Program-made: the position numbers and the translations under genes
Shown here: positions 27,001-60,200 of the stretch, in pieces
Layout of the letters: each line of letters starts with the position of its first letter
Numbering within the stretch: position 1 is the stretch's first letter
Notes under the pieces: generated by a model
The model's input: the letters and a program-made list of their open reading frames with translations, nothing else
Database searches by the model: none
What the model was told of the DNA's origin: nothing
From: Candidatus Omnitrophota bacterium
GTDB lineage: Bacteria; Omnitrophota; Gorgyraeia; JAFGHF01
Direction of reading: 5' to 3'
Assembly: GCA_020341815.1 (NCBI GenBank)
Contig: CP070837.1
Location: forward strand, 1,236,575 to 1,300,574
DNA length: 64,000 nucleotides

Positions 27001-30000
27001 TATTTATTTTTGGCGAATACCTTGAACCAGTTAGAAAGATACGAGGAAGCTATTTATAATTATTTGCAGGCGTTTAAATGCGGCCATGACGAAATAAAGG
27101 TGTATTTTAATTTGGCAGAGGCCTATATACGTAACGGGGAATGTCCCAAGGCTGTGGAGATACTTGAGCCGTTCTTGAAGTCGTACAGTAAGAATTTCCG
27201 CTTGCAGCTTACTCTGGCAAAAGCATATTTCATAAACCAGGAATATTACAAGGCCCAGCAATGCTACAACGAAGCTGGTACATTAAAACCTGAAAATACA
27301 TCCGTGCTTTTGGGATTGGCTGGGGTTTGGAGGATAAAAGAGAATTATGATATGGCTGAAAGATATCTCACAAAAGCTATAAAATACGATCCCGAGGATT
27401 GGCTTTTGTATAAGGAGCGGGGATATGTTTATTTATTAAAAGGTGATTTTAATAAGGCTATTGAAGATTATAAGAAGGCGATATCCCTTAATCCCGGCAA
27501 CGAAAGATTATATATATTCTTAGCAGAAGTATATAGTGCAATGAGTGACCTCTCTTCCGCCAGAGAAATGGTTAACAAGGCAAAACAAATTGACCCTAAC
27601 ACGCATATTCCTAATAAGTTAGGCATAAGCTCACCTGTAGAAGAAAAGGGAATGCTGAAAAGTCTTGATATGGAAGATTATGTTTCAATAGGATTTAAGC
27701 TTCCAACAGGGGACAATATTATCCAAATTCACAAAGAATTATTTAATGTTATTATTCTTGAATGGTCTAAGCAGAAGGGTTTGGATGTTTCTCCTGAGGC
27801 GATTCTTTATGTACTTTCAGGATTTTTGGAAAAAGAATATGCTTTTTTAAAGGAAAAAATTAAGGATGAGGATATATTTAATTTTTATATAAGTAAAAAG
27901 GTAATACCTGACTTGTTAGATATAGCAAGAGAAATGCCTCCCGATAAAATTCCCGATAAAGATATATGCTGGACGAAAAAAGAAGAAGTATCTAATATTG
28001 AGGATATTTTCCCGAATATAGCAATCTATCTTTTTAGGCTTTGGAGGCTTATCCAATGTAAACAAAAAGAATCATGGAATGATTTTTTTAAGCGTCATCC
28101 CGTGCCGGTTGTAAATTATGGCAATAAGAAGCATTTAATCTTTGGATATGGAAGTCATCGTTTTCTTCTAAGTTGCCTGTTGGGACATACAAAAATTCCC
28201 GTAGTGGTTTACAGAGCCAAAGATAATAATGACTCAAAACATATATCTTTACCGATAGCTACGGGATATCTTTATAGAAAATATATGTGCGGACACAGGT
28301 ATCTTCAGGATACCGAACAGACTATCGTAGGAACTATATTTGCCCGCTTGGGAGAAATTGCCGATAATTTTGGAGCATTTTCAAAAATAAATCGCGATAA
28401 GGATGGAAACACAGTAATCCGGTTCGATGTGCCTTCCTTTCCCGACAATTTTTCAGAGAGAGAAAAAAATAAAATAACAGCCGAATATGAGGGAGCATTA
28501 TTTGAAGTAAGTTCGGGCTTTCGCTCTTCGCCTATAAATAGCTCTGTTAAGGATATGGAGATTTTGGTAGTTACTTCCAGTTCACCTGTAAAAATTGGGT
28601 TTGAGCCGCCTGAGGCTAAAATGTATGAAGAATATAAAAAATTAGGGATAGAAGTGCCGCAGAAGGTCTCTCCTGAATCAATAGAAAAAGTCCATTTAAT
28701 AAACAAGCGGAAGGCACCTATCCAAGAGGAGATTATTAAATGGTTGAATAAGAATAACGCAAACTTCAATGACTCAGGATTGAGCGATGAGCAGCGGGCT
28801 GATGCGTTGTTATCAGCGCAGAAGAATCCGGAAATATACGACTTAACCACTACTTGGTGCCGGAAAAAGGTAAAGGAACTTAATAAGCTTAAAGGCTCGG
28901 CCGATGAAATTTTAATTGAGACGCTTGCTTTTATTCGCGAAGTATGCTGGTTGACTATCGGAAAGTGGCCTCGGGATGTGCAGGTATTGGGCGGTGTAGT
29001 CCTGCATGAAGGCGGCTGGGCAATCGAGATGGGTTCCGGAGAAGGCAAGACCCTGACTGGTCTTTTTCCCGTAGCCTATAATGCCATTCGCGGAAAACGG
29101 GTTTGGGCTGTAACGATTAATGATTATCTTGCCTGCAGGGATCTCCAGTTTTTGGGTCCAGTGTATGAACGCATGGATTTTCCTGCGGGAGTGACGGCAT
29201 GGGAAGGTAAAAGCTTTAAGTATACTCCCGATGCTGAACCCAGTCGTCGCATATGGCCTAACCTCCAAGCTCTTCATTATATGTATGGCTCTCCTGAGGC
29301 ACGAAAAAAAATTCATGAAATGCCTATTGTTTATGGTTCAGAACATGCATTTGTCGGAGATTATTTACATGACGGCATGATCTACACTTTAAAAGACCAG
29401 ATGTTCGGTAGATTGCCGGATTTTGTTCTTTTTGATGAAGTTGACTTTGTACTTATCAGTAAGGCGGATGATCCGCTAGTTATTAGTATGCCAAGAAGGG
29501 GTAGCAGAAGTAATATTATACACTATCCCTGGCTTTGTCGCCTTGCCTTAAAACATTTAAATGAAGGGGATGATTATGTCGTCAATAGAAGATCTAAAAA
29601 GGCTTTTCTTACCGATCGAGGAAAAGAAAAAATAATAGAAATTTCAGAGGAATATGATGAATTGAAAAGGTTAAAAGATAAGAAGCCTATAACATTAATT
29701 TTGCTTTTTGAGGCGGCTTTGACTGCAGCTCATCCTGAGCTTTATCGCAAGGATAAAGAGTATGTTATTAGAGGAGACAAGGGAATAATTCTCATTGACC
29801 CAGAGACCGGTGCCAGGAGGCCAGGGGAAGCCTTAGGCAACTATTTGCATGGGCCTGTGGAACATTTCGCAAAAATTCCTATTAGTATGGATTTCAATCC
29901 GCAGGCAAGAATGACTCGATGTGATTTTGCAAAGACATTGTCCGATGCAGGAGTAGAAGTAGCCGCTATGAGCGCTACTATAGGTCCAGATGCAGAGCTT

Positions 30001-33000
30001 TTAAAGACGTATGGACTTAAGGTGCGATATCTGCCTCGGCATTTTCAAAATATATGTAACCATTATCCTCTTATCCTCTGCATAAGCAGGAAGGGGAAGG
30101 AAAAAGCTATTCTTAAAGAGGTGCGTACGATGGGAAAAGAAGGCAGGCCAATAGTAATACTTGCTCCATTTGTTGATGAAGTTCACAATCTTTCCGATCT
30201 GCTTAAGCATGAAGGCATTAAGCATCAGGTTATCGATGGCAGCAAGCCCGAAAAAGAGCCTTATTTAATATCCCAAGCAGGCCAGAAGGGACAAGTAACC
30301 ATAGGTATAATTAAGTTGGGATGGGGCACAGACTTTACTTTGTCGGAAGAAACAAGAGCATTAGGAGGTTTCCATATAATTATCCCGCCTTTGAGCTCTT
30401 GGCGAGCATATCAACAAGCCAGGGGGCGTGCGGGCCGACAGGACGATCCGGGAAGTACGCGGATAATTGCATCTATATGGGATGAACTTATCCAGATACT
30501 TGGAGGAGAAAATTTAAAGAAAATTCTTGAGAAGGTTAAAGACTTGCCTGAGGATGAGCCTATTGAAGATGAAGAAATAAGGGCTTTGTTTGAAAAAATC
30601 CTTCTTGAAATTGAGAAATATAACAAAGAGCACCGTGCTGAAATGTTAGAACAGGAGAAGCATTTTAAGCAACAAAGAGAATCGCTTTGCTCCTTAAGAA
30701 AGTTTATTCTTCACAATCCAAGGCTTAAGGCCAAGGAAAGAGAAGGCATATTGAAAGTATTGGATAGCAATTGGAGGAAATATTTAATCCGCCTGGAAGA
30801 ATTGAAGAGGGAACGATTGCTGGAAGATTTTGATTTGAGCAAATGTTTGGAGGATACACAATTTGCGGAAGTGATGGCCAGCGCCTTACTTAGTCAAATC
30901 GAATTTATCTATATTTTAAGGAAAAAATTCAATAAAAAATGGAAAGGAACCTTGACTTTCCCCTTTGAAGGAAAATTTTTAAGCGTTTTAATAGATATTA
31001 TTCAAAAAAGATACCATCATACTATAGAACATGAGGAATTACTTCAGGAGATAACAAAATCGAGGAGACCTCAAGAATTATCCGCACTTGATGATTTGAA
31101 AAGGCTATGGGATAGAGAAACAATAGAACCATATTCTTCAGAAGAAAGAAATTTAAGTTTGGACGATCGCAAAAATGAAATTTCAATTAGCATAATAAGA
31201 ATTAATTTTCCGGTTGGCGAAAGAGTTCTTTCTGCCATGGCAGTAAAGATTTATAAAGATGATAAGAAGACGAGAAAACTTTTGGGATATCTTATTAAGA
31301 TTCCCTATGGCATAAATACTTTTACAAAATATTGGCGCAAGCCAGAGGAGGGAGAATTATCTCATGTGGAATTTTATCCCCAAATAATAAAGGAAATATA
31401 CCGGATAAAAGAGAAAATGCCCCTTATAAAAAAGGCTATAGAAGATGTGGAAAAAGCAGAGTCGCCTATGAAAATCGACCCTATATTTAACCATATTAAA
31501 TATGCTGCAGAAATTATTGTAAAATCCCATATAGAACCAGATAGTAACGATGGAAAATTCATCAAATTCCTTTACGATTTATTGCTGAATGCCGAAAATA
31601 TTCCTTCATCAACGCAAGACCCTTTGATTCGATTGAAGAAAAAAAAGAGAATGGAACCATTGAAAGAACTTTTAAAGGATAGAAGCTTGGAAGATGTCGT
31701 GGCGGAAATGAGACGTAACAACTTGCTAAGATTAACTACCGATACCGAGAAGATTTTTTTAGCGCTTTATTATAGAAAATCAATAAGCGAAGCAATGCGA
31801 GATTATAATCGTTCCAGGGCGGCAATAAATAACATTTTCAGGAATTGGGAGAAGGCAATATCATCTTTTTTAATAAACATGGATCGTTTTTCCAATCTTC
31901 CGAAGATAAAAAGGAATTGTTTAAATGAAATTATTTCCAAAGGGATTATTTGCGTAAACGAACCGGATGATTTTTTGGATATTCATCACGATTTACTTAA
32001 AAATGTATGCAAAGTTTTAGATAAAATAGAAAAATATTTAGATATTTCAATCTTTAAAGGCGCAGAATTAAAGTTTGAGTATGGTTATTTGTCGATATTA
32101 ATAGACAATATAATTTTCACTCTTGATGCCCCCGGGTCTATCGATTCTATAGGTAAGCATTTTGTAAAATTATTTATCGATAAGAAGATTCCAGGGACAT
32201 CGCTAAAGCAATGGAAGGAGTTTATACAAAAAGCGGGATTTGAATATATAAGGGATGGCAAGCCGATTAAACCTACGGCTATAAGAGAAAAAACAATATA
32301 TAAAACTGAAGGATGGACAAATCTGGACTCGGGCCCTTGTAAAAAATTGAGAGATTTATTAAAAGAAATTCAAGATCCGTACAATTATTTAGTGGAAGCG
32401 TTATGGCTATTATTAAATAATCCGGATTTGGTAAATGAGAAAGATCCTATTTCTGTATTTATTCAAGAGGCTTTAGGGTTTGGCGCTGCTTCTATAGAAA
32501 GCTCATCGCCTATAGATAATGTATCTATAACAATAGAGATGAAGGATAGATTCACAAATGCAAAGCCAAAAAGAATAATTAATAAAAAATTTGCAAAAGA
32601 AATAATTGTTTTATTAATAGATGATCCTTGGATGAGATCAAGGGAAATAATGGAAAATTTGGTAAATGAATATTTTAGATTTCCGAAACAATTGTCCAGA
32701 AGAATAAAAACTACTTTTGGAAAGGATTTAGAAGTATTGAAGCGGGAATATCAGGTCAAATGGCTTGAGCATATGGATAAAGAAGCATTGACAATCTTAA
32801 ATGATTGCCCTTGCATGAGAGGTATGGAAGAGCTTAAGGAAAAGTTGGCAAAGCATATTCCTATCCTGGATAAGATGCCCATAAATACTTTTAGAGGAAG
32901 ATTGCGGTCAATTCCGAAATTACACGAAAAAGTATTATCATTGCTGAAGTCCGCTAGAAAACTCCGCAGCCTCTCCAGCCCGGCAAATATTTTTTATCAA

Positions 33001-36000
33001 AAACTTTTTTCTTTTTTAAGTAAAAAGAAAGACCTTTGGGTTGAAATAAAGCGGATATCCCGGACAAATAAACTTCCTAAGAATGGGATATATGGCTCTT
33101 CCAGGATAATTCAGTTAGGGACAGAAAGCCTAAATTCGGTTATAAAGCATTTTATGCTCTATCAGGGGTATGTAGTTCGAGGAAACATCAAGTATATTAA
33201 CGATGAGGCTTGTTTAAAGGGAATAAGCATTACAGACATACTTGATTATTTAAGCAAGATCGGCATTAAGGAAGTTCTGTTGCTTGTTAAAAATTGTGAG
33301 GGTGAAAAAGGAATTTTAATTCCGGAAGGCATGAAAGTTATTATCCCTTTAACTAATATTTCTGAAGTTTATTGTTCTATGGATAACATAGACTATCGGT
33401 TTATAGATGGTCATGATATAGAAGAGAGAAGCAAAAATTTGGAAAAAGCACTTAAAGAGAAGACAGAAATAAAGACTTGGATCAGCGAGCGCTATCTTGC
33501 CGGAGGTTGGAAGGTCATTGATAAGCGAGACAAAAAAGATAAAGCCTATTTATATACATGGGAAGATGTCCTCCCCAGGATAATAAAGCGGGCTCTTAGA
33601 AAAAAGATCGAATCTGAGCACGAGGAATCTTTTCAGAAGGCAACTCAAATAATAGTAGAATTTCATTTCGCAGGCTATTCTTCTCAATTGGGTAATATCT
33701 ATAGAAGAGATGCATATGATGAGAAGCTTATTCCGGAAGATAGGAAAATTAGATTAAAAAATAAAAGTAAAGATAAGGTTATAAAATATTTAGTTGAGAA
33801 AACCGGCAAATCTAAAAAATATTTTGAAAGGATGAAAGAAAAAGAGCTTCGTGAGCTTTCTATAATGATATGCGGTAAGAGTCATTTCAAGGAAAGACTT
33901 ATATTTGAGCTCTTAGCAGACAAGGCTAAGCTTAAGCTTAACTGTAAGGTGAGAATTATTACACAGTATCATGCTGAAGATTTTGAAATAGAAATTGATA
34001 AAAATGAATTATTTTCCTCCAGCCCGGCAGTAATAGAATTAGGGAAAACACAAAAGATAATGCAGAAATATCTTAGTAGGAAATTGGGGGCAGCAGTTTC
34101 CTCGCCAATGGAAAGGGATAAGTGCGTTCATTCAAGAGATAAAGCCTCACCGGCTACAAAAATACCTTCTCTAGCAGCTAATATCATACGCTTTATGCCG
34201 CGAAAGGATAAGGTGAGGGTAAGGCCTCCGGGGTCAATGACAAAGGCAATGGCATGGATAAAGGATAGCAATAAGCTTATCTATGACAGAATGTTAGAGA
34301 CCTTTATGTCGGAGATTCCCAGGAAATTATTGGGTGAATTTTTAGAGAAGTATTTAATCTCAGAACATCCCCTGCTTACTCCTTTGCAGAAGCAGGCGAT
34401 GAAGGGTTATTTGATTAAGGTAGTAGAGGCTCTTGGTGATAACATGCAGCTTGCCCAGCGGTTTGTTGTTTTGCGGAAAATAGATAACCCTGTGCTTAAT
34501 GTTAAAGATTTAGCAGATGAATTAGGGCAGACATCGCGCTGGGTGGAGAGCTTATTATATGGCGAAAGATATCCAGATTATTATTATCAGGGTTCATATG
34601 AGAAAATTATAAATTATATCCAGAGAAACGATGAGGGTATGTATCAGCTTATATTAAAATGTATGATCGATGATTTTATGAATAATATGTTTGTATTTCT
34701 ATTAAATGGCGGAAGTAAGGTAAAGAAAGAAGATATATCCAGAGATTTTAGAAAATATTTACATAAGGCTTTATCTAAAGCCGGTCTCGATAAGTCTCAA
34801 AAGAAATATTATGAATATTTGTTGAATAATCCATCCAGCAGTGAAAAAGATATTGCAAATGAATTAAATGTTTCTGAATCAACCGTAAATAATAATTTAA
34901 AAGGAAAAGACCATTATTATAAGGCAAGTGGATATAACTATCAGGCAACAAGCGCTGAGAAAGAATTAATAGATTTTATCGATAAGCAGTTGACGCCAAG
35001 ACAGGATACGGCATATCTTGAAAAATTAAAAAGGAAATTACACCAGAAAAGGGTGGCAAAAATAGCCGATAATATTCAAGGAATCGCAATTTATAGAGAA
35101 ACAATAAGTTATATATGTAGTTTTGCGAAAAAAGCAGACCTTGAAGATATATGGATGCTGGGTTATTCTTTGGCGAAAAAAGCCGTGAAGGATAAATGGA
35201 GCCTTAAGAAAATGATGTTTATGGTTTTTCTTATTGAGGAATTGTTGAATAATATGTTCGAAGAAGGCAATCGTCCTGAGGCAGCCGAAATTATTTGTAA
35301 ACAGGCAGGAAATAAAAGATTGTTTGATTTAACTAAGGAAGAAATGCACAGCTTAAATCGAAAATTAAAGGCATCTGGTGCGCATGTTATTAGACAGAAG
35401 AAAGCTTTTTTCTTTATCATGCCCGATTCGAGTGCAATAGAAATGTTAGTTAATATAATATTGAAGAATAAAAAGAGAGCTAAACAGGAAGCCAAGGAGC
35501 TATTGCAAGGATTAAGGAATAGAAGGAGATTAAAAAAATTCATTAGCAATCAAATGAATAATAAAGTGCGTTCTATTGGACTGCCGCAAGAGCCTGCCCT
35601 GCCCCGGAAAAGAGGAGATGAAGTTATCCTCAATCAGAAAAATGAAAGCGGGCAGCGCATAAAGATACAATATAACACAGAAGGCTCTTTGCGGATCTTT
35701 TATAAAAAAGGTGGCGAACAAAAAACGGGAATTATCAGCTTTATGAAGGAAGAAGAGAATAGCATAACTATAATGGTGGATTGTGATTTTTTCTTGGAGT
35801 CGGATATAATGACGGAACTTGTACTCTGGTTTTCCCGGTTGTTGTTGTCGAAACAGGAAAAGGGAAAATACATCGCTATGCTCTTTTCATTCACTGATCC
35901 CCCTGTAAATATCTTGTTATCTATACTTGAGAGATACGGGAGTGTCATAGGCTATTGGGACGGCAAGCGGTATCGCGGGAAAAGGGTTTGGAGGAGGATT

Positions 36001-39000
36001 GGAGATAGGACTCTTTCAATAAATTATCTTGGTTTGCGCGTCAAACCCACAAGAGAAAAAGTTTATGGCCCTAATATAAGAAAAACCAGGACACTTTCCT
36101 CTCCCGCAAAAGATGGTTCTAAGGATAAAAAAGTAAAATTTCTAAACTGTCCCGATACAATAAAACCGATTTCCGGTATTTTCTTAAGTGGGATAGAGCC
36201 GTCTGAGCAGAAAATGCAACAGCTTCTCCCTGCATCCGGCAATAGGGCAGAAAAAAGAATAAGGGGCGTGGCGGAAGTTGTTGGGGTGTTCTTAAGCAAG
36301 AATGAGGATACTTCTGATTCCGCCGCCTCGCCAATAGACTCAAGTAAAGAAAATAAATTAGATCTCGGAAAAATAGAGCCCTATATTGATTGTTTGGAAA
36401 ATATCATAAGATTAGCAGCAATGCTCCCTGATAGTAGAGAAGAAGGCTTTTATTCAATTATATTTTCTCTGAATTGCAATCTCAAAACATTAAAAGATAA
36501 TTTTGATGAAAATAGTATTCAAGATATAGAAAATTTATTTAAAAAATTATGGCAAAGTACAGTGCAGATATTGAAGGATAGAGCAAGAGAAGTTCACAAA
36601 AATTTAAATCCTAAAGAAATATATAAATTTGGCTGTATGATTAAAGAATTTGGGGTGCTTAAAGAAAGTTTATTTTTGGGCCAAGAGCCTATAAAATCGG
36701 TTTTAGAAATAGAACAAGAAATAGTAGAAAATATTTTAAAAAGATTGAAATACTATCTGAAGACAAAATTGATAGACTTAGATTTTAGAGATTCCAATCT
36801 TGATGAATGGAATAAATTTATAATGCAAAGAGCAACTTCTATAGAACTTCTGCAGGAAGATAAATGGAGAAAAGCATGGTCATCCGTTGATGGAAATAGG
36901 AACCGAGATTCCATCTCCTCGCCGATAAATCCGGGTTTGCCGCAGAGCGAGAAAGACATTCTTGAAATCATTTCCCACTTTATAATTACTGATAAAGAAA
37001 GCTTATCTGAATTGACAAAGGGTGTTAGCCAATTAATTTCTTCAAGACAAAAAGATTTTCTTGCTATTGAAAATAAGTTAAATATGGATAGCTCGGAAGA
37101 AATGATATCGGGCCTGCAAGATTTGCGTCTATTAATATTAGGAGATGTAATAAATACCAATAATATCAATTTTCTTGTTGAGTATGACAGAATAGATAAA
37201 AATCTTATAGGATATGTTGCGTTACCTGTATTTACATATATCTTTTTGCGTCTTTTATTAAAGCAAAAAAATGTATGGTGCTTTTGTGCACCGGAACATA
37301 TAGTTAATTTGATTTCTATTAATGAGTCAGAAGGCTTATTTGTAGATAGCTTTTTAGCAGAGTTTTTTGAGATAGACTTGCGTGAATATTATAGATGTCA
37401 GAATAAGCAGTTATCTTTAAAAATTGAATATATGCCTGAGAGCCAAAGGGCCTTAGGATTGCAAGATAAACTTAATCTGTTTTACAATCCTTTGAGATGG
37501 CAGATAGATATTCCCGCTTTAGTAGAAAAAATAAAGCATAATACCTTACGTATTAAGAGAGATAGCTTTTCTGTTTTCTATGTTCCTATTTTGGGAAAAA
37601 ATGGAAGAAAGGAAAAAATATTCGAAATATATCAGATAAGGTCCTCTGATGGGTTAGGAATAAAGTTGACAGAAAAGAAGATGGTAACAGAACTGTTATT
37701 GAAAGAGAAATTTTGCAAAGATGCAAAGTTGATTACTTTTCCCGTGGGGAGGGATGAGCAACTGCTTAATCGCAGAGAAGAGCTTTTTGAAGAGTCATGG
37801 GACAAACTGATGCACAGGTTTCCGATAAAAAGAGATAAGCCATTGCTTCCATGGGGCTTTTTAAGCAATATAAGAGGCATAAAAGAAGATGCTTCTAATT
37901 TTTATCTCAGTTCTCCGGCTACGGATGCCGTATTTAAAGCATTAATCAAAAATCCTTTTATTTCCAAAACAAAATTTAATTTTGCGGTCAGCTTGTCTGT
38001 TTTTAATCAGATGTGTGCGAAGGCTTTAGTAGAAAGAATAAAAATAATTTTAAGGGATGAACTGTTAGAAAATTTGCCTAATTTTACTCTGGATAATTTA
38101 TATGAGAAATTGCAAGAAATATACAGCTTAATCACAGATAAAAACTGTTTAGAAAATAATAAAAAGAAAAATAAATCTTTTATTGCACATATAGAGAAGA
38201 TGCTGAAATTAGCTAATACTTCCTGGATAAAAATAAAAAAAGAAATTATGCTAGAAAAAGCAAGACAATTATATCCTTTTGTTCAGCAAAAAGAGGAAAT
38301 CGCCAAAGAATTAAAGGACTTATATATAAAAGATAAAAATAAAGGGGTAGATTTTAGGAAAGCACTAAAAAGAAGGGTGAAGGGATTATTAAAAAATAAT
38401 CTCTGTATGCCCGAAAATAAAATAAGAGCTCAAATAGTGAAAGATTTAGGTGTGAGAAGAATTTATCGGCAGAGACTTTATGAATGGCTAGAGCCGTTGG
38501 GAGGTCTTAAGCATTTACGTGCTGAGGCGCTATATGAAATATTGGAAGAAATAACTGCAAAAAGACAACAAGAGCAAAAAGTCTTTACCCTGGATACATT
38601 TTTTTATATGTTTATTGTATTAGGATGGCTTGGCTTAGGTTCCGGCATAAGTAAAAACTTTTTCCGCAGAGAGATAAATGAGTTATTAGCCAGATTGGAT
38701 ACGTCTTTTGAAGAAACAGAGGCTGTTGCCTTTCTGAAGACGAAAGGAGTAGATTTAGAAAGTAGTATATTTAGGAGGCGGTCTAATGATGATCCCAGGC
38801 CAAGATGCACTTATCAAAGAGCATATAGAAGGTTGAAGCTGATTGAGAAAACATGGAATGAAGCGGATTGGCAGGGAGTAGAGCATGAGCCTTTTTCTGT
38901 AAAGGAGATAAACTTAAAATGGCTGGCACAATGTTCTCCCGAAAGACTTAAGCAGAAAGTATTAGAACGAATTCAGCAAAGAATAGAAGAAGCAAAGGCA

Positions 39001-45000: not shown

Positions 45001-48000
45001 AAAATTAGAAAGCGCATATTTATATATAACCTTCTGCAAATAATTCATGATTGCATTTTGCATCATCATGAACGTTATGCAGGAGAAGGTTATCCTGCAG
45101 GAGGAAAAAGAGGTAAGGGCATTCCTTTGGCAGCACGAATTATAGCAGTTATAGATCACTTTCATACCTTAATTTCATTAAGGCCATTTAAGCAAGCATT
45201 ATCTTTGGAAGAAGCATTAGAAAAATTAAGGGAGGAAAAAGGTAAGAAGCTGGATCCGGATATAGTAGACCGTTTTATAGAAATTATTAAACAGACTGGA
45301 ATAATTGATTGCTGGGATACGGATATGTGGTGGAGGCCTCGCAGAAATACTAAAAGACATTCTTTAACAAAACTTTTCCATCCTGCGCATTTCCTAATGG
45401 ATGGCACTTCTGCTTCTCTTGTTTCCGCCTCGCCGGTATCTCATGATGTATATGCTGCGGCGGTACATATCCTTGGTTTAAACATAGGGGAGTTAACCAA
45501 AGAGACAGCATGCGAATTTCTTCTCAAATTTTTCCAAACAGAAGATGGAAACATTAGAGAAATAAGAGGTATTCTAAGTTTTAGGGATAAGGATAGCAAA
45601 GAAATAGAAATTACAGATCTAATAAAAGCTATAGAACAGACAGGCCTTGATTCTTTCTATCGTCTTCTGGTTAGGGATCTTGCTGCCATTACCGTGATTA
45701 ACAGTAGTGATAAACAAATAGAATTTTACAGGAAGTATGTCGTTCTGCTGAAATATTGGGAGACATCCTCAAAGGAGGATATAAAGAATGAATGTAAACA
45801 ATGTATGGATGAGATATGTAGGTATTATTTATCTAAAGAGGTACAAAGGCGAAGTGAGAAATTTAAATATGAACATTTTTCCTATCGTGTTCCAATTAAG
45901 GATGACTTGATAACACAGCTTTATGAGTCTTACGATGTTTTAGACGATTTAGTGAAGATGTTGTTTTTAGAGTATATTAAACGCACAAAGGAGTTTCCTC
46001 ATTTTGAGACACTTAGTGAAGAAGATATTAAAAACAAAACTTTAGTTATACTATTTTATCCTTGCGAAGAGAGAGAGCTAAATAGAGGAATTTTACCTCC
46101 CAATATTTTTTCTCTCGCTAACAGTATGGTGGCAGAAGATATCAATGTAGTTTTAGCGCCTATGCCGACCAGACTTGCAGAGAAAAACTTTGCCTATAGG
46201 TATTTAAATACAATAAATGCCTATTTAGATCTAAGAGATGTATATAGTGGCCATCCGGTTATGTATGCATGGATGAATATGCTTGTCGGCAGGTATATGC
46301 GAATTTTTAAACAGTTAGGTATGGAAGAAAAAGAAATCCGTATAAAGTTTAATTTTGGTGTATCAATGTTAGATTCTACTTATCCCGATGGCCTGGCTCT
46401 TAATGAGATGTTAAAGCAAAAATTCCCTGAGTCTAAGGTTTATGTAGGTGGGCCTACTGTATCAGCCGAGCCAGAATTGGCGTTTAAAGAAATGTTTGAA
46501 AAAGTTCCCCATAACCCAAATTTTTTGATAAATGGAGAAGCAGAGATTGTATTCCCCTATGTAGTGAAAACGTTAAATAATTGCAATGGGGCAGAAAAAT
46601 TGGAAGATTCTATTATTCAGAAATTATCCGGATGCCATGGTCTTGCGCTTAAGTTTGGCGGAAAGATATCTACTTTTAGATTTAAAGAAAAAAATATGAT
46701 CAATGAAGAAACGATGAATGGATTACCTTTCTTTCCGGAAATTATCGCTGATGATTCCGCAATTTATTATGTTCCTGAAAGGGGATGCCGACACAATTGT
46801 TTCTTTTGTGCGCGGATCACATCGCATAAAGTGCGTATGTCCAGCGCCGATAAAATATTAAGTGATTTAAGGATGATGGATAGAGCTATAGGAGAGTTTA
46901 GACAGACGCTTTTAAAGCGTATAAAAGATAAAGATATGCTGTGGCTATTTGAATTTCCTTTTAATGTTGAAGATAGAGTTTCGATTTTTGAAATTTCTCT
47001 AGTTTTGTTAAATATATTTGAGAATTTAGGAGAAAAAGGAGAAAACATAATCCCGAATAAGTATACCGAACTAATACAAAAATGGGACAGAGACGGAAAT
47101 ATTGAGAGAATAAAGCTATCTTACAAAAGAGCCGGTGATGATATATTTGAAAAATTACAAATTATTATAAATGAAACAGCCGTAAACTTTAGTATGCATG
47201 AGAAGGTGCATATTGATATTGATGATAATAGTTTTTTGCATGATAAGTTTATAGCGATAAAGGTGCTTAAGGATTTAATAGATAAACCTTTACAGCATAT
47301 CCGGGTTAAAAGATTCCAGGCTCATGTAAAAGATTTTAATACACCAACGGGAGAGCCCGATGAAGAAATTGCTGATGTTATAAGAGAAGTTCTTAATGAA
47401 GAGGATGAAGGAGTAATTTTGGGTCTAGAAAGTGGAAGCAACAGGGCTTTAGCCGATTGGTGCAAAGATTTTGATTGGGAATACGCCCGGCAGCGTATTT
47501 CCTGGCTCGATAAGAAAGTCAAGGTTTTTATAAATCTGATTATTTCAAGACTTGAAAGCAATCCTCAGGAAATTATTGAATCTCTAGGCAACATTGCATT
47601 ATTACTTTTAGATACAGAAAATGTAAAGATAACATATGTATCTTTTCTTATGCCTCTTCGTGGCTCATCAGCAGGTAAAAGATTTAACGAAAATAAGCAT
47701 AAAGGAATTAAACCTTTTAGATTTATGGATCGTTATTTAGAGAAACAAATATATTTCTATGAGTTTCCCGATGATGAGGTAGTGAGAAATGTTCTTCCAA
47801 GCAATTATGAAGATTTAGCTAATTGCATGTATTATATAAAAAGCAAGAAAGAAATCATAGCGACCTTTAAGAAAGTTATGACACTTTTAATGGAGGAAGC
47901 TAAGTTAACTCATCACAAGGATCTACGAAAGATAGAGAAGATATATTTTAAGAAGATACAGAGGCTTGAGCAATATTTAGCTAGCAGCCCTGTAGAGATT

Positions 48001-51000
48001 ATAGAGGAATGTCTTGTTAGTTCTGAAAACAGTTCGCCGGTGGATTCAAATAAAGAAAGTAAATTAGGCCTCGAAGTGCCTATTTTTGTGTATGGTATCT
48101 TGGATGGTGCTTTATCTATTGGAAACGTAGAACGATATTGTGATAAGTTGAAAATATTGTTAAAAGAAGATGAACGTATTGTTGAGGTGAAATTTGGCTA
48201 TGATGTGAATGACTACAAGTTTTCAAATTTTATAAAATTTTTCAAGGAGGCACAATCTCTTTCTCCGGAAGGCGCAATAATTTCTATTATGGGTAGGTGG
48301 TATGAACATTGCGTAAAAACTGCCTGTCAAAATGCAGCGGAATTGGCAGAGGATTCAAATTTCCCTATATTTATCATTCTTATTGAAACATATATAGAGA
48401 CTATGTTATCTCGATATTCATTGGCACAAAATAGAATAAAAAAGGGTTTAATTGAGATTGATAAAACTAAAGGAATAAATTTTATTGTTTTTGTTAATGA
48501 CGAAGTAAAAGAATGCAATCCACATATATATAAAGATAAAAACCCCATAATTATAGATATTTATTCAAACGAAAAACAATTTTCTTTGCATGATTTCCTT
48601 ATGAGAATTAAGGCATGGCGCGAGAAAGATCTTTATTGGCTAAGGCAAGAAAAAAAGCCTGAGTTTTTATCCGATGAGACGACCAAAGAATCTATTGAAA
48701 GTGCTGAATTTAATGCATTAGTTAAAGACCCTTTTATTTCCAAAACAAAATCAAACTTTAAAGGTAACTTATCTGTTTTTAAGCAGATGTGCGCGAAGGC
48801 TTTAGTAGAAAGGATAAAAATAGTTTTAAGGGGTGTGCCTTTAGAAAAACTGCCTAATTTTACTCTGGATGATTTATACGAGGAATTAAAAGAAATATAT
48901 AACTCAAATACAGATAAAGCAAATAATCGAAAGAAAAAAAATTCTTTCATTATACGCATAGAGAACATGCTGAAATTAGCCGATCCACCCGATACTTCCT
49001 GGATAAAAATAAAAAAAGAAATTATGCTAGAAAAAGCAAGACAATTATATCCTCCTGTTCGACAAAACAGGGAAATTATCAAACAATTAAATGACTTATT
49101 GCCTTATATAAAATATAAGAATGAAGGAGCAACTTTTAGGAAGATACTAAAAATAAGAGTAAAGGAATTGTTAAAAAATAACCCCTATATGCTCGAAAAT
49201 AAAATAAGAGCTCAAATAACAGAAGATTTATCTCTTCCGGAAAGGATTAGCCAGCAGAGATTTTATGAATGGTTAATACCGTTGGGCGGTCTTAAGCAAT
49301 TGCGCGCTGAGGCATTATATGAAATATTGGAAGAAATAACTGCAAAAAGACAAGAACAAGAAGCCTTTAGTCTGGATAGATTTTTTTATATATTTGCTGG
49401 ATTGGGATTGTTTGGCGAATATCATATAACTAAAAAAAATTTTCTTAAAAAGATAAATAATTTATTAATCAGATTAAATACATCTTTTGAAGAAACAGTA
49501 GGAAAAAATAATGTTTCCAACTCACCGATTGGAAAAGAGGTAGGGCCCGGGATTTCTTCACCGGTCAATAGAGCTGAAATTAAAAAGTTCCGGATAAGAA
49601 AAAGGCAGAGAAGAGCATTCCTGCATAACTTAGTTAAGAAGTTTCCTTGTCTTAAAGTTATATATTTGCTTGAAGATGAGAGGAAAGCCTTAGAGGTAAC
49701 AATAGATAGTTTCTTGAAGAAAATAGATATCTATCTATCAAAGCTCGAAAGCAATTTTAATAATTATAAAGTTGGGAAGGGAGAAGACAAGGAAAACAGT
49801 AAAGAATTAGTTAGGAATAACATTAAATCAATACTTGATAGTATAGACGATCATTTTGCCGATTGCCGGATTATAGAAGGTGTAGTTTTTACAACATTAG
49901 GCCATTTTTTAGCAAATAGTTTAATTGCTTTATCCGGAGCTTTGCATCTTAATGAAGAAGAAAAACAATTTTATCAGGATTTTACACAGATAATCTCACA
50001 ATTAAAATTATTAAAATCTGCTTCAGTAATTCTTGTAAAAGAATTTGGAACTATAAGACATATTGAATTAGATGCTACTGTTTCAGTTGATTCCTGCGGG
50101 AAAAGGATAGAAATACCGGGTGCCTATTCCAGCTTCACCACATATATCAGGCAACTTCCTTCTAAGTTTCTTCTGCGTAATATTTCTCCTAATCTTACTG
50201 TTAGAGCACTGGGGCAGTTGGGAAATATCTATTTAAATCCGCTGGAAAAGGATAAATTAACTCAATTTGCAGAAGATATGCGAGCTATTATAATTTGTAT
50301 TTATGAAAACTTAGCTTTAATCCATGCTCCCCCCGTGAAGAAGTCTAATGCCGAAACCTTCCCTATAATTTTCTGCAACCCAAGAAAATCCCCATCTTAC
50401 AATAAGAACCTTTCACTAAAATCAGCCAAGCAAGACCTGCCGTTGCTAAAAGCCGCCTTCTATCTACTTTCTCACAGAGATAAGTCTTATTTGAATTTTG
50501 GTTTGAAGACCATACTTGAGGCTCTGGAAGCTTACCGCTCAGAATCAACACAAGAAGACAGAATGCGCAGGCTGGTTAAGGTGCTTAAGGCCCGCACGGG
50601 TGGCAATATTCAAGCCGCCGCCTCGCCGGTTAATTTTGACTGCCAAAGTAGCAAAAATAGAACCGTCCCCTTTTCCTTGCAAGGGACTTGTGGTGAGCGA
50701 GCGAAAGTGAGTCGAACCACCGCCTCGCCGGTTTCTCCATTGACATTTAGTTCTAAAAAACAACTATTAACTACATACATGATGCTTTTATCTAGGCAAA
50801 TGGCTTTTAATCATTCCAAATCAGAATTATCACAACTAAAAGAGATTTGGAAAAAGTTCTTTAATAACTTAATAGTCAATATAAATAAACAAATTTTCAA
50901 TAAAGCATTTATACCTACTAAGCAATTTCTTGATAAATGCATCAAAATAGAATCCATCGATAGTTTAATAACTATGTTCTGTAATCGCCAATTAGTGCCT

Positions 51001-54000
51001 TTTCATGGTAAATACGCTTCCCATTATAGCTATGTAGATAATATTTTAGAGAAAATAAAAACAGCAAATAATTTTTCCGATACCTGTAAGATTATGTTTA
51101 TGTTTTCAGATAACCCAGAACATATCAGTTGCGTCTATATCGATTTTATCGAAATTAATTATTACTTTATGGAAATATTGACTGATGATGAATGGGCTGC
51201 GATTTGCACCCATGAATTAGCACATAAAAAGAAAAATCATTTTGAACAATTGTTAAAACTTAAATGTACACATAAAGGCGCTCTTACTAGAAATAGTGAA
51301 ACATGGAAGAATTTTATAAGAAAGATACAGATTGAAGCCGATAAATTTGGTTTGGAGTATGCAATAAAAGCAGGATATAGGCCTGAAGGAGCAGTTACTC
51401 TGTTAAAGAGAGACCTCGAATATTATCTAAGAAAAGAGGAATATCCCCAGTGGTTAATGAAAGATAGCATAGAGATAGAGTCTATACGTGTATTAAAAGA
51501 TAGAATCGAAGCTCTAAAGAAGCACCCTTCGTTATCTCATCTTGCCGCCTCGCCCGCCACAAAGCTTGGCGAGACTTCGTTGCTTCGCTCCAGCTTGCCG
51601 GTGGATTTAGTTAGCCGGTTCCCTTTGATGTTAATGAGACTGGAAGGATATGACTTCTTTTTGTTCATCAAAGGTAATTTTGAAGCGCGGAAAGATATCC
51701 ATCCTGCCCAAAAGGAGAGGTACTTCTTCTATAAGTGCCCAGGCAATGCGTATTTTAAGCCTGTATTTGCCAATAGTCAGATAAGCGGTTTTGAGGATGT
51801 AAGCAACCCCTCCTCCGGAAACACCTCTAATTTCATAAATTTTGTCAGAAGGAGTTTGCTTAAACCCCAGAGCCCTGCCCAGATTAAGGGGCAGCATAGT
51901 GATGTCTGCTCCAGAGTCAATATACATAGGAGTTTCTATTTTCTTTTGATTAACTTCAAGAATTACTGTGGCAATTGGGCGGAGGATTTTGCCCCAGTGC
52001 AAGGATGGCTGGCGTTCGTATTTAAAACGGATCATCTTTCGGTTATTAGAACGAGTAATCGTTGGTCAGGGACCTTGGCTACAAAGGGAATCTTATGGGG
52101 GTATTTTCTTCTTGCCGCCTTAAGCATTTCTTCAATATTGGTCCCCGTAGCCACAGGATTGCCCTCAATTATAACTACATATTGGTTAATAAGCTTATCT
52201 TTATTTAGCTTAATATATGCTTGTAAATTCTTATCCATTCTCTCTTTCTCCAAGAGCAAATATAACACACCGCCGACATTAAGTCAACAGAGAATTTTTT
52301 CAACTTTGTTAAGACCGGCAGGCAGGCATCGTTCATCGGTTGAAGATAAAATACTATCGACCAACGACCAACGACCATCGACTATCGAATCTGCCGTTTA
52401 CGCTGAGCAAGGCCGAAGTGCCTCGCCGGTGAAGGATGACCGGAACAAGATCGGCTATAGCCTTTATGATCGGGAGCTGCGCAGGTTGTATTTAAACCGC
52501 GGTTGCAGTTATATTAGTCCTAAGGACATTAGAGAGGAAAAGAATTTTTATGAAAAATGGAGAGAAAGCCAAAAAGTACCACGGATTGAAGACAATCAAA
52601 AACTCAGCTTAGTAAAGAGTACCTTGCTTCCAAGAGAATTAGGGGAATGGACTTTAGAGTTTCCCATTGGAACTCTTGACAGTTTTTCTGTAATTATTAG
52701 AGCATTTGGAGGAAATGTTGTAGCTGTTGTGGAAGATGAAAAAAGAAGAAAAACTTTAATAAAATACAATGAGAAATACGATAAGTCGATTGCGAAGTTA
52801 AAAGGAGGAGTTTTATACGATGTCCTTATAGGCCGAATTGATTCAGCGGAAATTGAACAAACTTTAAAAAAGATTATTCAAAAACAAGGTAAGTTCAAAA
52901 ATATAATTAATTTTGGGAGAAATTCAATAAATAGAGCTTTTGCTAATTGCGCAGATTTTAAATCATCTGGAGGATTCTATTGGTTTGATGTGCAATTTAA
53001 TCTGAAAAATTTTGAACTGGATTGCAGTAATAAATGGATAAGATTTATATTGAGATGGATATTCTGGAGGCATGGTTTCGGAGTTAAAGAACTTATTAAT
53101 TTGCCCAGTCCCAACATGCCTGATTTTCTGTATAAAGCCTGTCTTATTAGATTGAAGGATGATAAACCTAGTAAGACTGCAATAATTTCTTCTCCTGCAA
53201 GCAACCGAAAAGAAATTGATCCTTTGATTCAAGATTTAAGAGGTGACAGAAAAAATGATGGTTCTATTGCTCTCGCCTCGCCGGTGAGGATGAAAAATGA
53301 CTCTGGCCCCATTTTTACTACTTCCTCGCCTGTGAAACTAAGAAATCTTATTATAGGGATAATTGAGGCATCAAAAAAAAATAACAACGAAGACATATCG
53401 CATTATCGCAAGCTTATTTTAAAAGAAGCAAAAAGCAGACCTGCTGAGGTTTGCAATTTATTACGTACGGGCTTAGGGAGGCCAGAGATCGATAAAATCT
53501 ATTTAACAATAGCTGAATATTTTCGGCGTGATTATGAAGTCATCGGCTCTTTAGTAAAAACATTCGAAGGGGATAATAAAGATTCAATAGCATTCCTCTC
53601 CGCTCAAAAAATCCTTTTAGAAATAGCAGATTTTTCTATTAAAGGTTCTTTTGGCAGGGTTTTTATCGCAATTAGAAAAAGCTTACTTAAAAAATCATCA
53701 TCTCAGCTGGCTAGAGAATTTGTTTATGCGATGATAGAAAGAAAACATGGCAAATTAGTAAGAAGAATGATACCCATTTTTGGCGGTTCAGCTAAAACCA
53801 GAATTATTTTTGAAGATATCTTTTGGGAAAAATTCGAATTATGCGTTTTTCCTTTAGCATCTGCCTTGGGCGATAAAGTTAAAGATACCAGAAGATGCGT
53901 TAAAAATTTCTTTTTAAAGAAAGGAAAAGAATCAAGAGAATCGTATAAACTAATTAAATCGGAGCTGAATAAGGTTCAAAGGAGGTTTGGAAGATTTCCC

Positions 54001-56190: not shown

Positions 56191-56278
56191 GCATCAAAAC
56201 GTCCTTTACGACTTCCGGGTAGACTTCCGGGGACAGGTCACTTAATTCTGAATCGCAAGGACGGTTCTAATTCTTCCC

Positions 56279-56292
56279 CCGCCTCGCCGGTT
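56279..56292 (+). repeat. Linker-repeat copy located 3' of the giant-gene stop (non-coding context)
   Basis: cgcaaggacggttctaattcttcccccgcctcgccggtt compares with the in-frame copy at 42395-42432 (aaaaaagggaacggttctaattctttatccgcctcgccggtg) and with 43921-43956. Confidence 0.75.
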
Positions 56293-56408
56293 ACAGGAGA
56301 TACAGAAAAACGGTCGCTGTCCCTATTTTCTATAAAGGTATTCTTATTTCAGAAAGTCCCTATAAATAGGGATTAAGTGAAATGAGGTCTTTGGCTTCTT
56401 GCTACCTG

Positions 56409-56437
56409 CTTGACAAATAAAAGGTATTATGATAATC
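56409..56437 (+). promoter_or_regulatory. Sigma-70-like promoter for the downstream ABC transporter operon
   Basis: TTGACA (56409-56414), a 17-nt spacer, then TAATCT (-10-like). It sits ~50 nt upstream of the RBS AAAGGAGAAA and the GTG start at 56485. Confidence 0.45.
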
Positions 56438-56484
56438 TATATTACTATAATTAAGGCTTATTTAACTTCTTAAGAAAGGAGAAA

Positions 56485-57780: not shown

Positions 57781-58658
57781 GGCTTAAAAGATCTACAGCA
57801 GAAAATTACCTGTTTATACTTCCGGCGGTAATAATTTTTGCCATCTTTTATATATATCCTTTTTATGCCACTTTCAATCTGGGCCTGCGCGCCTGGGACG
57901 GGGTTTCGCCGGTAAGCCAGCTCGTGGGTTTGAGGAATTTTAAAGAGGTGTTGTTTCAGGACCGCCTCTGGTGGCCGTCAATGTGGCATGCCACTTATAT
58001 TACTTTAATTGCCTTAACCCTTCAGAATGCCCTGGCACTGGCCTTGGCTTTGGCTTGTGACCGGCAGATAAAATTAGGCAACTTTTACCGGCTGATTTTC
58101 TTCATCCCGCCGGTATTATCGGAAGTGGTGGTTGGTTTAGTCTGGAAATGGATTTATAACGGTGATTACGGCTTGCTTAATTACTGGCTGACGAATATAG
58201 GTCTGGGGCACCTTGCGCGTTCCTGGCTGTCTAACCCCCAGACTGCCTTAACGTGTGTGGCCGTTATCCATTCCTGGAAAGGATTCGGCTGGGGCTTTAT
58301 AATTCTTTTGGCGGGCCTGCAGACTATTCCCCGGCAATTGTATGAAGCCGCCCGGGTTGACGGAGCCAATTCCTGGCAGCGGTTCTGGCATGTTACTATA
58401 CCTCTGATGGTGCCTGTTTTTGTATTGGTGTCTATTCTTACCATTCTCGGTTCAATGCAGGCCTTTGTTTTGATTTTGACGATGACGGGGGGCAGTCCCG
58501 CTTTAGGATGTTCTGTGCCGGTAACCAGGATTCTGGGCTCTATGCGAGCGTCTTTACGTTTTGGGTATGCCTGCGCCCAGGGTATTATTTTCGGTCTTAT
58601 CCTTCTGGCGCTTTCTTTTATGCAGATTCGTATTTCCAAAAAGATGAAACAGGCTTAA
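57777..58658 (+). CDS. Carbohydrate ABC transporter permease (MalF/UgpA-type)
   Basis: Six predicted TM helices. EAA loop LYEAARVDGANSWQRFWHVTIPLMVP. 4-nt start/stop overlap with the SBP gene. Confidence 0.8.
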   Translation: MRLKRSTAENYLFILPAVIIFAIFYIYPFYATFNLGLRAWDGVSPVSQLVGLRNFKEVLFQDRLWWPSMWHATYITLIALTLQNALALALALACDRQIKLGNFYRLIFFIPPVLSEVVVGLVWKWIYNGDYGLLNYWLTNIGLGHLARSWLSNPQTALTCVAVIHSWKGFGWGFIILLAGLQTIPRQLYEAARVDGANSWQRFWHVTIPLMVPVFVLVSILTILGSMQAFVLILTMTGGSPALGCSVPVTRILGSMRASLRFGYACAQGIIFGLILLALSFMQIRISKKMKQA

Positions 58659-58665
58659 GACAAAT

Positions 58666-59523: not shown

Positions 59524-59524
59524 G

Positions 59525-60025: not shown

Positions 60026-60200
60026 GTAAAGGTAAAGTTAGAGGTTTTGGTTTTCAGCTTGACCGCGAGAAGATCTTATTATATAAAGACAGTCCTGCAT
60101 GGGAAAAATTGCAATGGCTGGAAGAAGCTAATCGCTTCTGTCAAAAATTTGTTACCGGCAGGCGCCGCAAAATATGGGAGAGTATCCGCCGAGGATAATT

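Follow-up and report, generated by a model that had tools for sequence, protein, structure and literature searches.

Ser-Pro motifs punctuate the C-terminal part of a giant multi-module protein of Candidatus Omnitrophota, a candidate bacterial polyprotein

Giant open reading frames (ORFs) are common in Omnitrophota (Seymour et al., 2023, PMC10066038). The giant proteins described in this phylum carry a divergent SecA without the wing/scaffold region, and their genes are preceded by a type II/IV secretion-like locus with a conserved parvulin isomerase and followed by sugar transporters; S8 and C39 peptidases were reported near the N-terminus of such giants, and their cleavage into several products was suggested, with the cleavage points stated to be unknown (West-Roberts, 2023, bioRxiv 10.1101/2023.11.21.568195). 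A "multi-enzyme metabolic" class, with radical SAM, ROK and receiver domains, was described in a 2026 preprint (bioRxiv 10.64898/2026.06.07.730766). Neither of these two descriptions of Omnitrophota giants mentions a linker or junction motif. Here we analyzed a stretch of 64,000 nucleotides of a Candidatus Omnitrophota bacterium (assembly GCA_020341815.1, contig CP070837.1, positions 1,236,575 to 1,300,574 of the forward strand), hereafter the window, which contains the 3' part of a giant gene. The encoded chain is punctuated by a short motif, [SAG]SP[VAIL], which lies between modules of the size of ordinary proteins.

The giant gene occupies most of the window:
1..56190, + strand: 3' part of the giant ORF, frame 1 open to TAA; the same stop is found in an independent assembly.
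The ORF list gives one ORF at 25..56190 on the + strand, and in translation frame 1 of that strand shows no stop codon from base 1 to the TAA at 56188-56190. The frame is already open at base 1, therefore the start of the gene lies beyond the left edge of the window, and the part inside it, which encodes the C-terminal part of the chain, has at least 18,729 codons. This is at least 56,187 nt, against the length of at least 20 kb (about 7,000 aa) that defines a giant gene. Its GC content is about 0.36 with a strong purine skew, and that of the six downstream genes is 0.44-0.48. The Logan contig L003 (run SRR14739666) is 99.9% identical to positions 54528-60910 and has the identical TAA; because this assembly is independent, the 3' end of the gene is not an error, and a sequencing error at the stop is ruled out. 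The ORF at 28890-51420 of a preliminary description of this DNA is real, but that range is an arbitrary slice of a much larger ORF.

In relation to the described Omnitrophota giants (Archaeovorin-type and multi-enzyme; Kizina 2022 as cited), the gene belongs to the same phylum by its flanking genes and has an ORF of more than 20 kb; it encodes a divergent SecA_DEAD with the preprotein-binding region and only a trace of the wing/scaffold, may share their sparse transmembrane helices, is mostly unannotated and poorly conserved, contains radical SAM, ROK, TPR and HEAT regions, and is followed by a sugar transporter and a glycosidase. Judged by these features, it is the C-terminal part of a multi-enzyme giant gene of Candidatus Omnitrophota, a known class. 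The idea of a new mode of bacterial gene organisation, which the preliminary description raised as a hypothesis, does not hold, since giant genes, the multi-enzyme class and the idea of cleavage are already published. Set against the published descriptions, the gene differs by the [SAG]SP[VAIL] punctuation with its TCG-CCG codon signature, and such genes are of two types, with and without punctuation. This punctuation, the signature in its codons and the recurrence of the motif in giant genes without detectable similarity to this one appear to be new, as do the two types.

In the giant protein, SSP is found 51 times, against 2.7 expected, and [SA]SP[VAI] 59 times, against a mean of 0.9 and a maximum of 4 copies in shuffled sequences, which bears out the uniform SSP[VA] junctions noticed in the preliminary description. 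The broader motif [SAG]SP[VAIL] gives 62 copies (3.3 per 1000 aa; about one expected). Each of the other five reading frames contains 0 to 4 copies of [SA]SP[VAI], and the junction motif is absent from 2,399 aa of ordinary proteins encoded downstream. Chance or low complexity as the source of the motif is ruled out by the shuffles and the frame controls. Information content is limited to the four motif residues, which lie in a setting of higher polarity and lower hydrophobicity than the rest of the chain. The 62 sites form 42 junctions, several of them double or multiple, with 20 inter-motif spacers of 7-43 aa. They divide the chain into 43 modules of 76-1308 aa (median 348, mean 425), the size range of ordinary proteins. 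Two of the double junctions are:
28525..28590, + strand: double junction SSPI-x14-SSPV; homology to P0001, a free-standing SecA plus HTH_8 gene, begins right behind it (SSPV, then KIGFEPPE).
42376..42432, + strand: double junction SSPI-VKKGNGSNSL-SASPV, DNA repeat D9; the other D9 copies lie at 43912-43958 and 56248-56294.

The same punctuation was found in other Omnitrophota giant genes, which were reached through the ABC importer genes next to the giant gene:
56485..59523, + strand: binding-protein-dependent sugar-type ABC importer, with a lipoprotein solute-binding protein (SBP; SBP_bac_1/8) and two permeases (BPD_transp_1).
This solute-binding protein with its two permeases is the downstream carbohydrate transporter characteristic of Omnitrophota giant genes. 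The adjacent permease identified 80 loci at 65-90% identity, almost all labelled as metagenome-assembled genomes of Candidatus Omnitrophota or Omnitrophica, and in about 30 of them the same transporter operon is directly preceded, on the same strand, by a long frame that continues past the upstream edge. Comparison of 31 giant-gene tails with this gene gave a single weak BLAST match (E <= 1e-6), to L047, a tail without punctuation, and in the closest relatives, what lies upstream of the transporter shows no homology to the last 4,000 aa of the giant. Ten tails carry the motif at 2.3-10.9 copies per 1000 aa, against 0.12 per 1000 aa in the ordinary ORFs of the relatives' loci (336,000 aa), and in their sampled parts these ten have no BLAST similarity to this gene at the same threshold. 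The L077 tail, used as query for a full-length punctuated relative, found none, and giant proteins seem to be absent from the database searched.

The form of the motif differs between lineages. L077 shows G-SSPA at seven of seven sites, L071 shows ASPL, L045 shows GA-[AG]SP[VAL], and L064 shows ASPLA, GSPIS and SSPIS; such lineage-specific flavours would be expected if the motif co-evolved with a reader, for example a protease. In the permease tree, tails with the motif are scattered among tails without it, which speaks against a lineage restriction of the motif, and a search for an alternative punctuation in the motif-negative giant tails found nothing enriched more than 2.5-fold. The modules of the relatives include proteins that are normally free and act in complexes, such as a sigma-70 factor, MraZ, receivers and ThiG. 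Residues 900-1320 of the L064 tail contain the junction block ASPLAFGSPISQFASSPISQFASS in three tandem repeats, and this tail has the top motif density, 10.9 per 1000 aa.

Domains were searched with Pfam on 1000-aa pieces and then per module, together with NCBIfam and PDB sequence searches and inspection of catalytic motifs. In this gene and eight related giant-gene tails, none of the 39 Pfam domains is cut by a junction, against 12.1 expected at random placement (P < 5e-5). No junction separates B12-binding from radical SAM domains, the SecA subdomains from each other or sigma region 2 from region 4; the [SAG]SP[VAIL] motif is present at every called module boundary and never within a domain. 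Bracketing is tight in this gene for the TPR region, residues 8797-9200 (junctions at 8780 and 9210), and for the M48-like domain, which ends at residue 17178 with a junction at 17183. In the relatives, it is tight for a HAD domain at 589-775 (junctions 577 and 790), a diphthamide-synthase-like domain at 41-252 (32 and 275) and a receiver at 1098-1185 (1087 and 1228), and junctions also bracket MraZ, ThiG and a whole sigma factor. From this placement, we take it that the junctions mark protein boundaries rather than domain boundaries.

Duplications inside the giant gene follow the same limits:
13006..14301, + strand: Pfam-dark module of 432 aa, whose paralogue (aa 5702-6125) is the first part of module aa 5663-6520 (nt 16987-19560).
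37926..38719 and 48702..49498, + strand: the two copies, about 800 nt each, of an internal duplication; the modules lie about 10.8 kb apart, and the first copy begins 6 aa past the junction at aa 12637.
The first paralogue pair (aa 4367-4795 and 5702-6125) shows 39% identity over 447 aa. Its first copy takes up module 4336-4767; its second lies between the junction at 5659 and an SSPT (aa 6096) that the motif definition does not cover. No homologue of this Pfam-dark module was found in a word-indexed protein database. In a second pair (aa 12105-12288 and 18515-18721) both copies begin at a junction. The third (aa 12643-12906 and 16235-16499), which corresponds to the 800-nt duplication, shows 68% amino acid identity over 270 aa and about 82% nucleotide identity, and the duplication is taken to be recent. 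Thus, internal paralogues have a start or an end only a few residues from a junction or an SSP site.

Homologous proteins outside the gene agree with these limits. P0121 is homologous to residues 13598-14143 of the giant, where junctions lie at 13599 and 14141; it shares this one module at 64% identity and not the neighbouring ones, and its remainder is unrelated save for one weak match of 24% identity, to the C-terminal region of the SecA-like module. The homology of P0130 covers its residues 87-454, between its own AASPV (91) and ASSPI (459) motifs. In both cases the limits of homology lie within 1-12 residues of the giant's junctions, and they lie 4-5 residues from the motifs of P0130 itself, while in P0121 only the end (17 aa) is near one. 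The free-standing homologues P0001, P0125, P0128, P0129 and P0131 do not show the motif, and P0126 and P0127 have one copy each. The preliminary description had raised whether domains occur as separate genes in relatives, and they do: free-standing homologues of the SecA-like and the zincin/kinase modules exist. As far as these alignments reach, the modules are the units of duplication and of homology.

The junctions also carry a signature at the codon level. In this gene, the second Ser of the motif is encoded by TCG at 27 of the 62 sites, against 5.7% of the other Ser codons (p = 9e-18), and eight of nine relatives use TCG there in 29-83% of junctions (p = 0.004 to 3e-14 in seven); overall, 87 of 156 second-position Ser are TCG, which represents 5-13% of Ser codons generally. 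The first-position Ser is TCG at 0 of 88 sites, so the preference is sequence-specific and not a generic preference for a rare codon. Furthermore, the Pro codon CCG is enriched at junctions, the base ahead of the motif is C in 69% of sites, and within this gene TCGCCG encodes Ser-Pro at 14 of 62 junction sites against 0 of 37 Ser-Pro pairs elsewhere. The nucleotide signal extends over about 15 nt (..C GCC KCC TCG CCG STG), with none beyond, and GC and GC3 are locally raised. AGY codons replace TCN at 34 of 156 second-position and 38 of 88 first-position Ser; because Ser is encoded by codons of both types, the peptide itself is under selection, and the codon preference is a further constraint on top of it.

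Some junctions are part of longer DNA repeats:
3286..3359, + strand: junction cassette 'KETSSPANSKTQTFGAVVKVDSFSS', DNA repeat D2, with other copies at 2005-2078 and 6217-6290.
56248..56294, + strand: junction-like relic past the stop codon, …KDGSNSSPASPV…, the third D9 copy, in frame and 20 codons after the stop; it is identical in L003.
The D2 copies at 3286 and 6217 are 99% identical over 74 nt, and the flanking protein is about 41% identical, which suggests that junction sequences were copied or gene-converted. The SSPVVGAV junctions at 5308-5331 and 8026-8049 have identical codons, with flanking modules that are much more diverged. Beyond the TAA the frame stays open for 61 codons (window 56188-56374), and the relic in it looks like the remnant of a former junction, which suggests that the gene was once longer. 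A weak hairpin with a T-rich, terminator-like site at 56250-56267 overlaps this relic.

The reading that we put forward, at a likelihood somewhat short of even, is that the chain is cut at its junctions and is a bacterial polyprotein. The architecture is of the kind that a polyprotein would have, and conservation of the motif across lineages, each with its own flavour, favours cutting too. After synthesis as a single polypeptide, the chain would be cleaved immediately behind the aliphatic residue by an endopeptidase with small-Ser-Pro-aliphatic as its P4-P1 recognition site; the modules would thereby be set free as individual proteins, perhaps acting like multi-effector toxins that are processed after delivery, and the M48-like and other HExxH modules would be candidate proteases. 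A small-small-Pro-aliphatic sequence resembles substrates of elastase, alpha-lytic protease and subtilisin (AAPV, AAPA, AAPL), and would fit the S8 domains reported near the N-termini of the giants. The residue that follows the motif points in the same direction. The bacterial Leu/N-degron (N-end rule) residues are L, F, W and Y, and one of these follows the motif at 1 of 62 sites in this gene (p = 0.003) and at 4 of 94 in the relatives (p = 0.002), against a background of 12-14% at flanking linker positions and 20.6% overall; I and V are well tolerated there. This avoidance matches the avoidance of Leu/N-degrons at a neo-N-terminus and is suggestive of one, although P1' specificity of a protease or a local conformational preference could produce it as well. 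Of the self-processing polyprotein proposed in the preliminary description, the protein-by-protein modules and the uniform junction motif stand, and the part given to HExxH modules lacks specific support.

HExxH is found four times in the giant protein, against 0.4 expected. Three motifs lie where the preliminary description had put three metalloprotease modules (nt 41026, 42973 and 51211); the fourth, at nt 47197 inside the second B12-radical-SAM module, is probably a chance match. The three modules are:
40807..42375, + strand: membrane-embedded HExxH module (zincin/site-2-protease-like), 523 aa, with HELVH at nt 41026-41040 in a hydrophobic helix.
42433..43488, + strand: HEALH module (gluzincin-like signature HEALH-x17-E), 352 aa, with HExxH at nt 42973-42987.
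50734..51546, + strand: M48-like metallopeptidase module, 271 aa, with HELAH at nt 51211-51225 (aa 17071) and the junction at aa 17183.
The HELVH module matches Peptidase_M50 below threshold (E = 0.03), and its second part matches the P-loop kinase-like region of its relatives, although a pattern search did not find their G-x4-GK P-loop in the module of the giant. An exhaustive HMMER search defined a family with 13 relatives that keep HExxH and the P-loop kinase-like region, some inside large proteins and others free-standing (580-1129 aa); the alignment of this zincin/kinase family had no match in JGI metagenomes. The HEALH-x17-E signature is conserved in P0130, the sole homologue of the HEALH module, which has no Pfam or PDB match. 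The M48-like domain (aa 17056-17178) matches Peptidase_M48 above the Pfam cut-off in the module-level search (2.1e-6; 28.1 bits against 20.3); otherwise, its matches are weak, with only NCBIfam HtpX at E = 0.005 and no PDB sequence match. Single-sequence AF2 models were unusable, with a pLDDT of 46 for the M48-like and 39 for the HEALH module. Nothing ties the HExxH modules to the junctions.

Several of P0123, P0124, P0125-P0127 and P0001 share a similar signal-peptide-like N-terminus (…NNIAFA / NNIAYG), and several relatives show a conserved N-terminal domain ahead of the membrane-embedded HExxH plus kinase module. Two of these proteins, P0123 and P0124, combine several modules in 4.6-6 kaa (thousand amino acids) and have almost no Ser-Pro punctuation.

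MARTX toxins are formed by one very large chain that carries unrelated effectors and is cut in unstructured linkers at a short, simple site, and by analogy they would be the best bacterial precedent for the working of a punctuated giant protein. Their cut sites are X-Leu followed by a small residue, and fewer than about 10 effectors are found in 3.5-5.3 kaa, whereas this gene shows at least 43 modules and a Ser-Pro motif, and its delivery into prey is speculative; of the MARTX hallmarks, RTX repeats and the cysteine protease domain, no Pfam family was found across the 18.7 kaa. Like the polyproteins of picornaviruses (3C), nidoviruses (3CL) and potyviruses (NIa), the chain has protein-sized modules and a short conserved site whose flavour varies by lineage, in viruses together with the protease, and neighbouring sites with short spacers. 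Unlike them, it is cellular, 3-10 times longer and carries a codon-level signature at the site, and the window revealed no cognate protease of the chymotrypsin-like or papain-like type.

Several points weigh against cleavage, which we infer purely from sequence. No protease is tied to the junction motif. In the sampled tails of the relatives, none of this gene's HExxH modules was seen, and ordinary free-standing proteins are among the family members of the membrane-embedded one. Proteolysis does not require the TCG-CCG signature, which points to a mechanism besides cutting or in place of it. Multi-module giant tails with PRK, protein kinase and GT2 domains have no punctuation; because such unpunctuated giants exist in related genomes, fusion without the motif is viable. 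The avoidance of L, F, W and Y could also reflect a conformational preference, and operons make polyproteins unnecessary for co-expression in bacteria. Finally, a Kyte-Doolittle scan gave only 14 candidate hydrophobic segments in 18.7 kaa, six of them within about 70 aa of another, so an uncut, membrane-tethered cytoplasmic megaprotein is topologically possible.

The polyprotein reading can be extended to a two-layer code, in which the peptide site would be cut by a dedicated protease that co-evolves with the lineage, while the codon signal ..C-TCG-CCG.. would time or couple this step during translation, or would keep module exchange in frame, and dozens of unrelated proteins, all from one ORF, would be released, possibly once delivered to prey. 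In this full form we regard it as rather unlikely.

The explanation that competes best leaves the protein uncut, and we consider it possible, though we lean against it: the product would be a membrane-tethered multi-enzyme megaprotein in which the junction is a functional linker. The junction could then be a translational pause, where two slow codons and the proline would let each module fold before the next emerges, or a Ser-Pro handle for a parvulin-type peptidyl-prolyl isomerase or chaperone conserved beside the Omnitrophota giant genes. The position-specific TCG (87/156), the enriched CCG and the polar context of the junctions are consistent with a linker of this kind, as is the Rotamase_2 isomerase conserved in the locus preceding the giant genes (West-Roberts, 2023, bioRxiv 10.1101/2023.11.21.568195). 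The pairing of six of the 14 hydrophobic segments would allow both sides of each hairpin to stay cytoplasmic, and the 2026 preprint takes these proteins as membrane-anchored (bioRxiv 10.64898/2026.06.07.730766). A folding pause, however, would be expected also between the domains within modules, where no junction is found, and the lack of TCG at the first-position Ser makes the codon preference specific to the sequence. Furthermore, an uncut chain leaves the avoidance of L, F, W and Y at the next residue unexplained, modules of the sigma-factor, MraZ and SecA type are hard to picture as active inside a giant chain, and the unpunctuated giants apparently fold without the motif. Uncleaved megaproteins such as polyketide synthases and nonribosomal peptide synthetases (PKS/NRPS) or those of the AROM type also show many catalytic units, linkers and modular evolution; unlike their coupled, serially homologous modules, those found here are unrelated proteins of housekeeping type, which follow no assembly-line logic and have a strict tetrapeptide at every boundary.

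An improbable alternative places the primary signal in the DNA, where the in-frame core of about 15 nt (C-GCC-TCG-CCG-STG) would be a recombination or microhomology site for the in-frame exchange of modules and the peptide a tolerated by-product. Conservation across lineages extends to synonymous positions, modules are mosaic (P0121 shares one at 64% identity and not its neighbours) and duplicated within the gene, some junction cassettes are 91-99% identical in DNA between flanks that are far more diverged, a junction relic lies past the stop codon, and GC and GC3 rise locally at junctions; all of this would agree with such a site. The use of AGY codons at 34 of 156 second and 38 of 88 first Ser with the peptide kept argues instead for selection on the peptide; in addition, a core of this length is very short for homologous recombination, the window shows no evident recombinase, and the motif is specific to the coding frame and strand (0-4 copies in each other frame).

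It is very improbable that the gene is an operon without stop codons, with modules translated from internal starts after the junctions or with the mRNA cut there. In favour of this explanation, GTG or ATA/ATT is the fourth codon at some junctions, and Seymour et al. (PMC10066038) saw no catalytic RNA domains and proposed single mRNAs. A Shine-Dalgarno sequence with an in-frame start follows 4 of 59 junctions, against 3.3 at random, the junctions show no excess of RNA structure after correction for GC and no Rfam matches, and 56 kb without stops would be pointless if modules were translated separately; both internal initiation and RNA structure at junctions are thus disfavoured. Equally hard to credit are in-frame selfish repeats, like the Rickettsia palindromic elements, or functionless low-complexity Ser/Pro linkers, since a few junctions do share longer DNA repeats (D2, D9) and junction neighbourhoods are richer in GC than the gene, but conservation covers only about 15 nt (4 aa) with nothing beyond, most junctions lack extended similarity, the strict motif sits exactly at module edges across lineages with lineage-specific flavours, and ordinary genes have 0.12 copies per 1000 aa against 3.3 in this gene.

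Whichever way the junctions act, many of the modules that they delimit can be recognised as enzymes or regulators, with their catalytic motifs intact. Besides the HExxH modules, the recognisable ones include:
28591..32502, + strand: SecA-like module, 1,304 aa; the motor and preprotein-binding regions are at nt 28837-30351, the weak wing/scaffold match ends at 30723, and about 500 aa lie beyond.
11638..12993, + strand: B12-binding plus Radical_SAM module, 452 aa, between SSPA (aa 3876) and SSPV (aa 4332).
45439..47982, + strand: degenerate second B12-radical-SAM module, 848 aa, with the enzyme at nt 46357-46884; it includes the fourth HExxH.
43957..45426, + strand: module ending in HD-GYP, 490 aa, with the HD-GYP domain at nt 44737-45264.
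22180..24222, + strand: partial ROK-family kinase-like module, 681 aa.
26350..27627, + strand: TPR module, 426 aa, with TPR families at aa 8797-9200 between the junctions at aa 8780 and 9210.
34789..34902, + strand: weak winged-helix/sigma-r4-like helix-turn-helix (HTH).

The SecA motor claimed in the preliminary description is present: Pfam finds SecA_DEAD, the preprotein-binding domain (PP_bind) and a P-loop at aa 9613-10117 (E = 4e-45), the module aligns with residues 26-663 of Thermotoga maritima SecA, and its motor motifs are intact (Walker A GSGEGKT, Walker B DEVD and Arg-finger RGRAGRQ). SecA_SW, the wing/scaffold, is a trace below threshold (E = 0.0023, the first 56 of 200 profile positions), and the module agrees in this with the divergent SecA of the Omnitrophota giants, which has DEAD and preprotein-binding regions and no wing/scaffold. 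It is about 32% identical to housekeeping SecA and falls below the NCBIfam equivalog cut-offs (303-353 bits against 800-862; for SecA, 353 against 862). By its motor motifs, it is therefore classed as a SecA-type ATPase and not as housekeeping SecA. P0001 is its nearest relative, and a scan of GTDB representatives gave no close one. The P0001 gene (L001 14232-15371) overlaps an oppositely oriented rve_3 integrase gene by 40 nt, and its 3' end may have been truncated by an insertion element.

Both B12-radical-SAM enzymes of the preliminary description were found. The first lies outside the range given there, at aa 3898-4236 (nt 11692-12708; B12-binding 2.6e-21, Radical_SAM 1.4e-22), with CPGRCIFC present, and the second (aa 15453-15628; TIGR04014 3.6e-8) is degenerate, with CxxxCxxC intact (CRHNCFFC). 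The HD-GYP domain was also recovered (aa 14913-15088; HD_5 8.5e-27), with its HD...HHE...GYP motif and PDB matches to 4mcw and 4r8z. The ROK kinase with a phosphoribosyltransferase (PRTase) was found in part: ROK is a partial match at aa 7619-7721 (8.7e-8; ROK_glcA_fam 2.7e-10, far under the family cut-off), again outside the range first given, and Pfam, NCBIfam and PDB searches on the giant protein returned neither a PRTase nor the GT30 glycosyltransferase of the same description. In the ROK-like module partial matches are out of order, with the C-terminal part of an allose kinase (module aa 47-132) before the ROK N-terminal part (229-328), and the module may be permuted, or duplicated and degenerate. 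The sigma-r4 and Fis HTH modules of the preliminary description have matches, all of them weak (HTH_24 5e-6, Sigma70_r4_2 0.009, and Fis HTH_8). TPR and HEAT blocks were found with Pfam.

Much of the chain has few relatives. Dark modules that total 1,765 aa gave no homologue in a word-indexed homology search, and a stretch of 1,052 aa over three modules had 14 matches among 1.84 billion representative proteins. A GC-rich patch at 8001-10000 (0.46 against about 0.36) lies within one Pfam-dark module of 907 aa (aa 2699-3605).

Downstream of the giant gene and the importer lies a further gene related to carbohydrates:
60201..62504, + strand: secreted GH2-like TIM-barrel glycosidase with TPR; its start agrees with the gene call on L003.
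All eight differences between the window and L003 are synonymous and are clustered in 100 nt (56758-56859) of the solute-binding-protein gene, a cluster that looks like a small recombination patch between strains. The 438-aa protein encoded at 62617-63933 is without a Pfam match, and about 180 nt inside its gene are duplicated in tandem (63025-63203 and 63580-63761, 76-92% identity).

Whether Omnitrophota giants act as a single chain or as many products is a stated open question, blocked by the missing cleavage points (West-Roberts, 2023). The junction motif makes it directly testable, through neo-N-termini after [SAG]SP[VAIL] in proteomes, and if the polyprotein reading is true, the junctions would be the first residue-level cleavage map for these giants. 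They also allow the giants to be split in silico for structure prediction and annotation. The TCG-CCG signature suggests a translational or recombinational layer undescribed for polyproteins or megaproteins. If cleavage is true, no larger polyprotein system would be known, and the viral polyproteins would have a cellular counterpart in it; if it is refuted, the motif would still be the modular grammar by which giant genes are built and shuffled.

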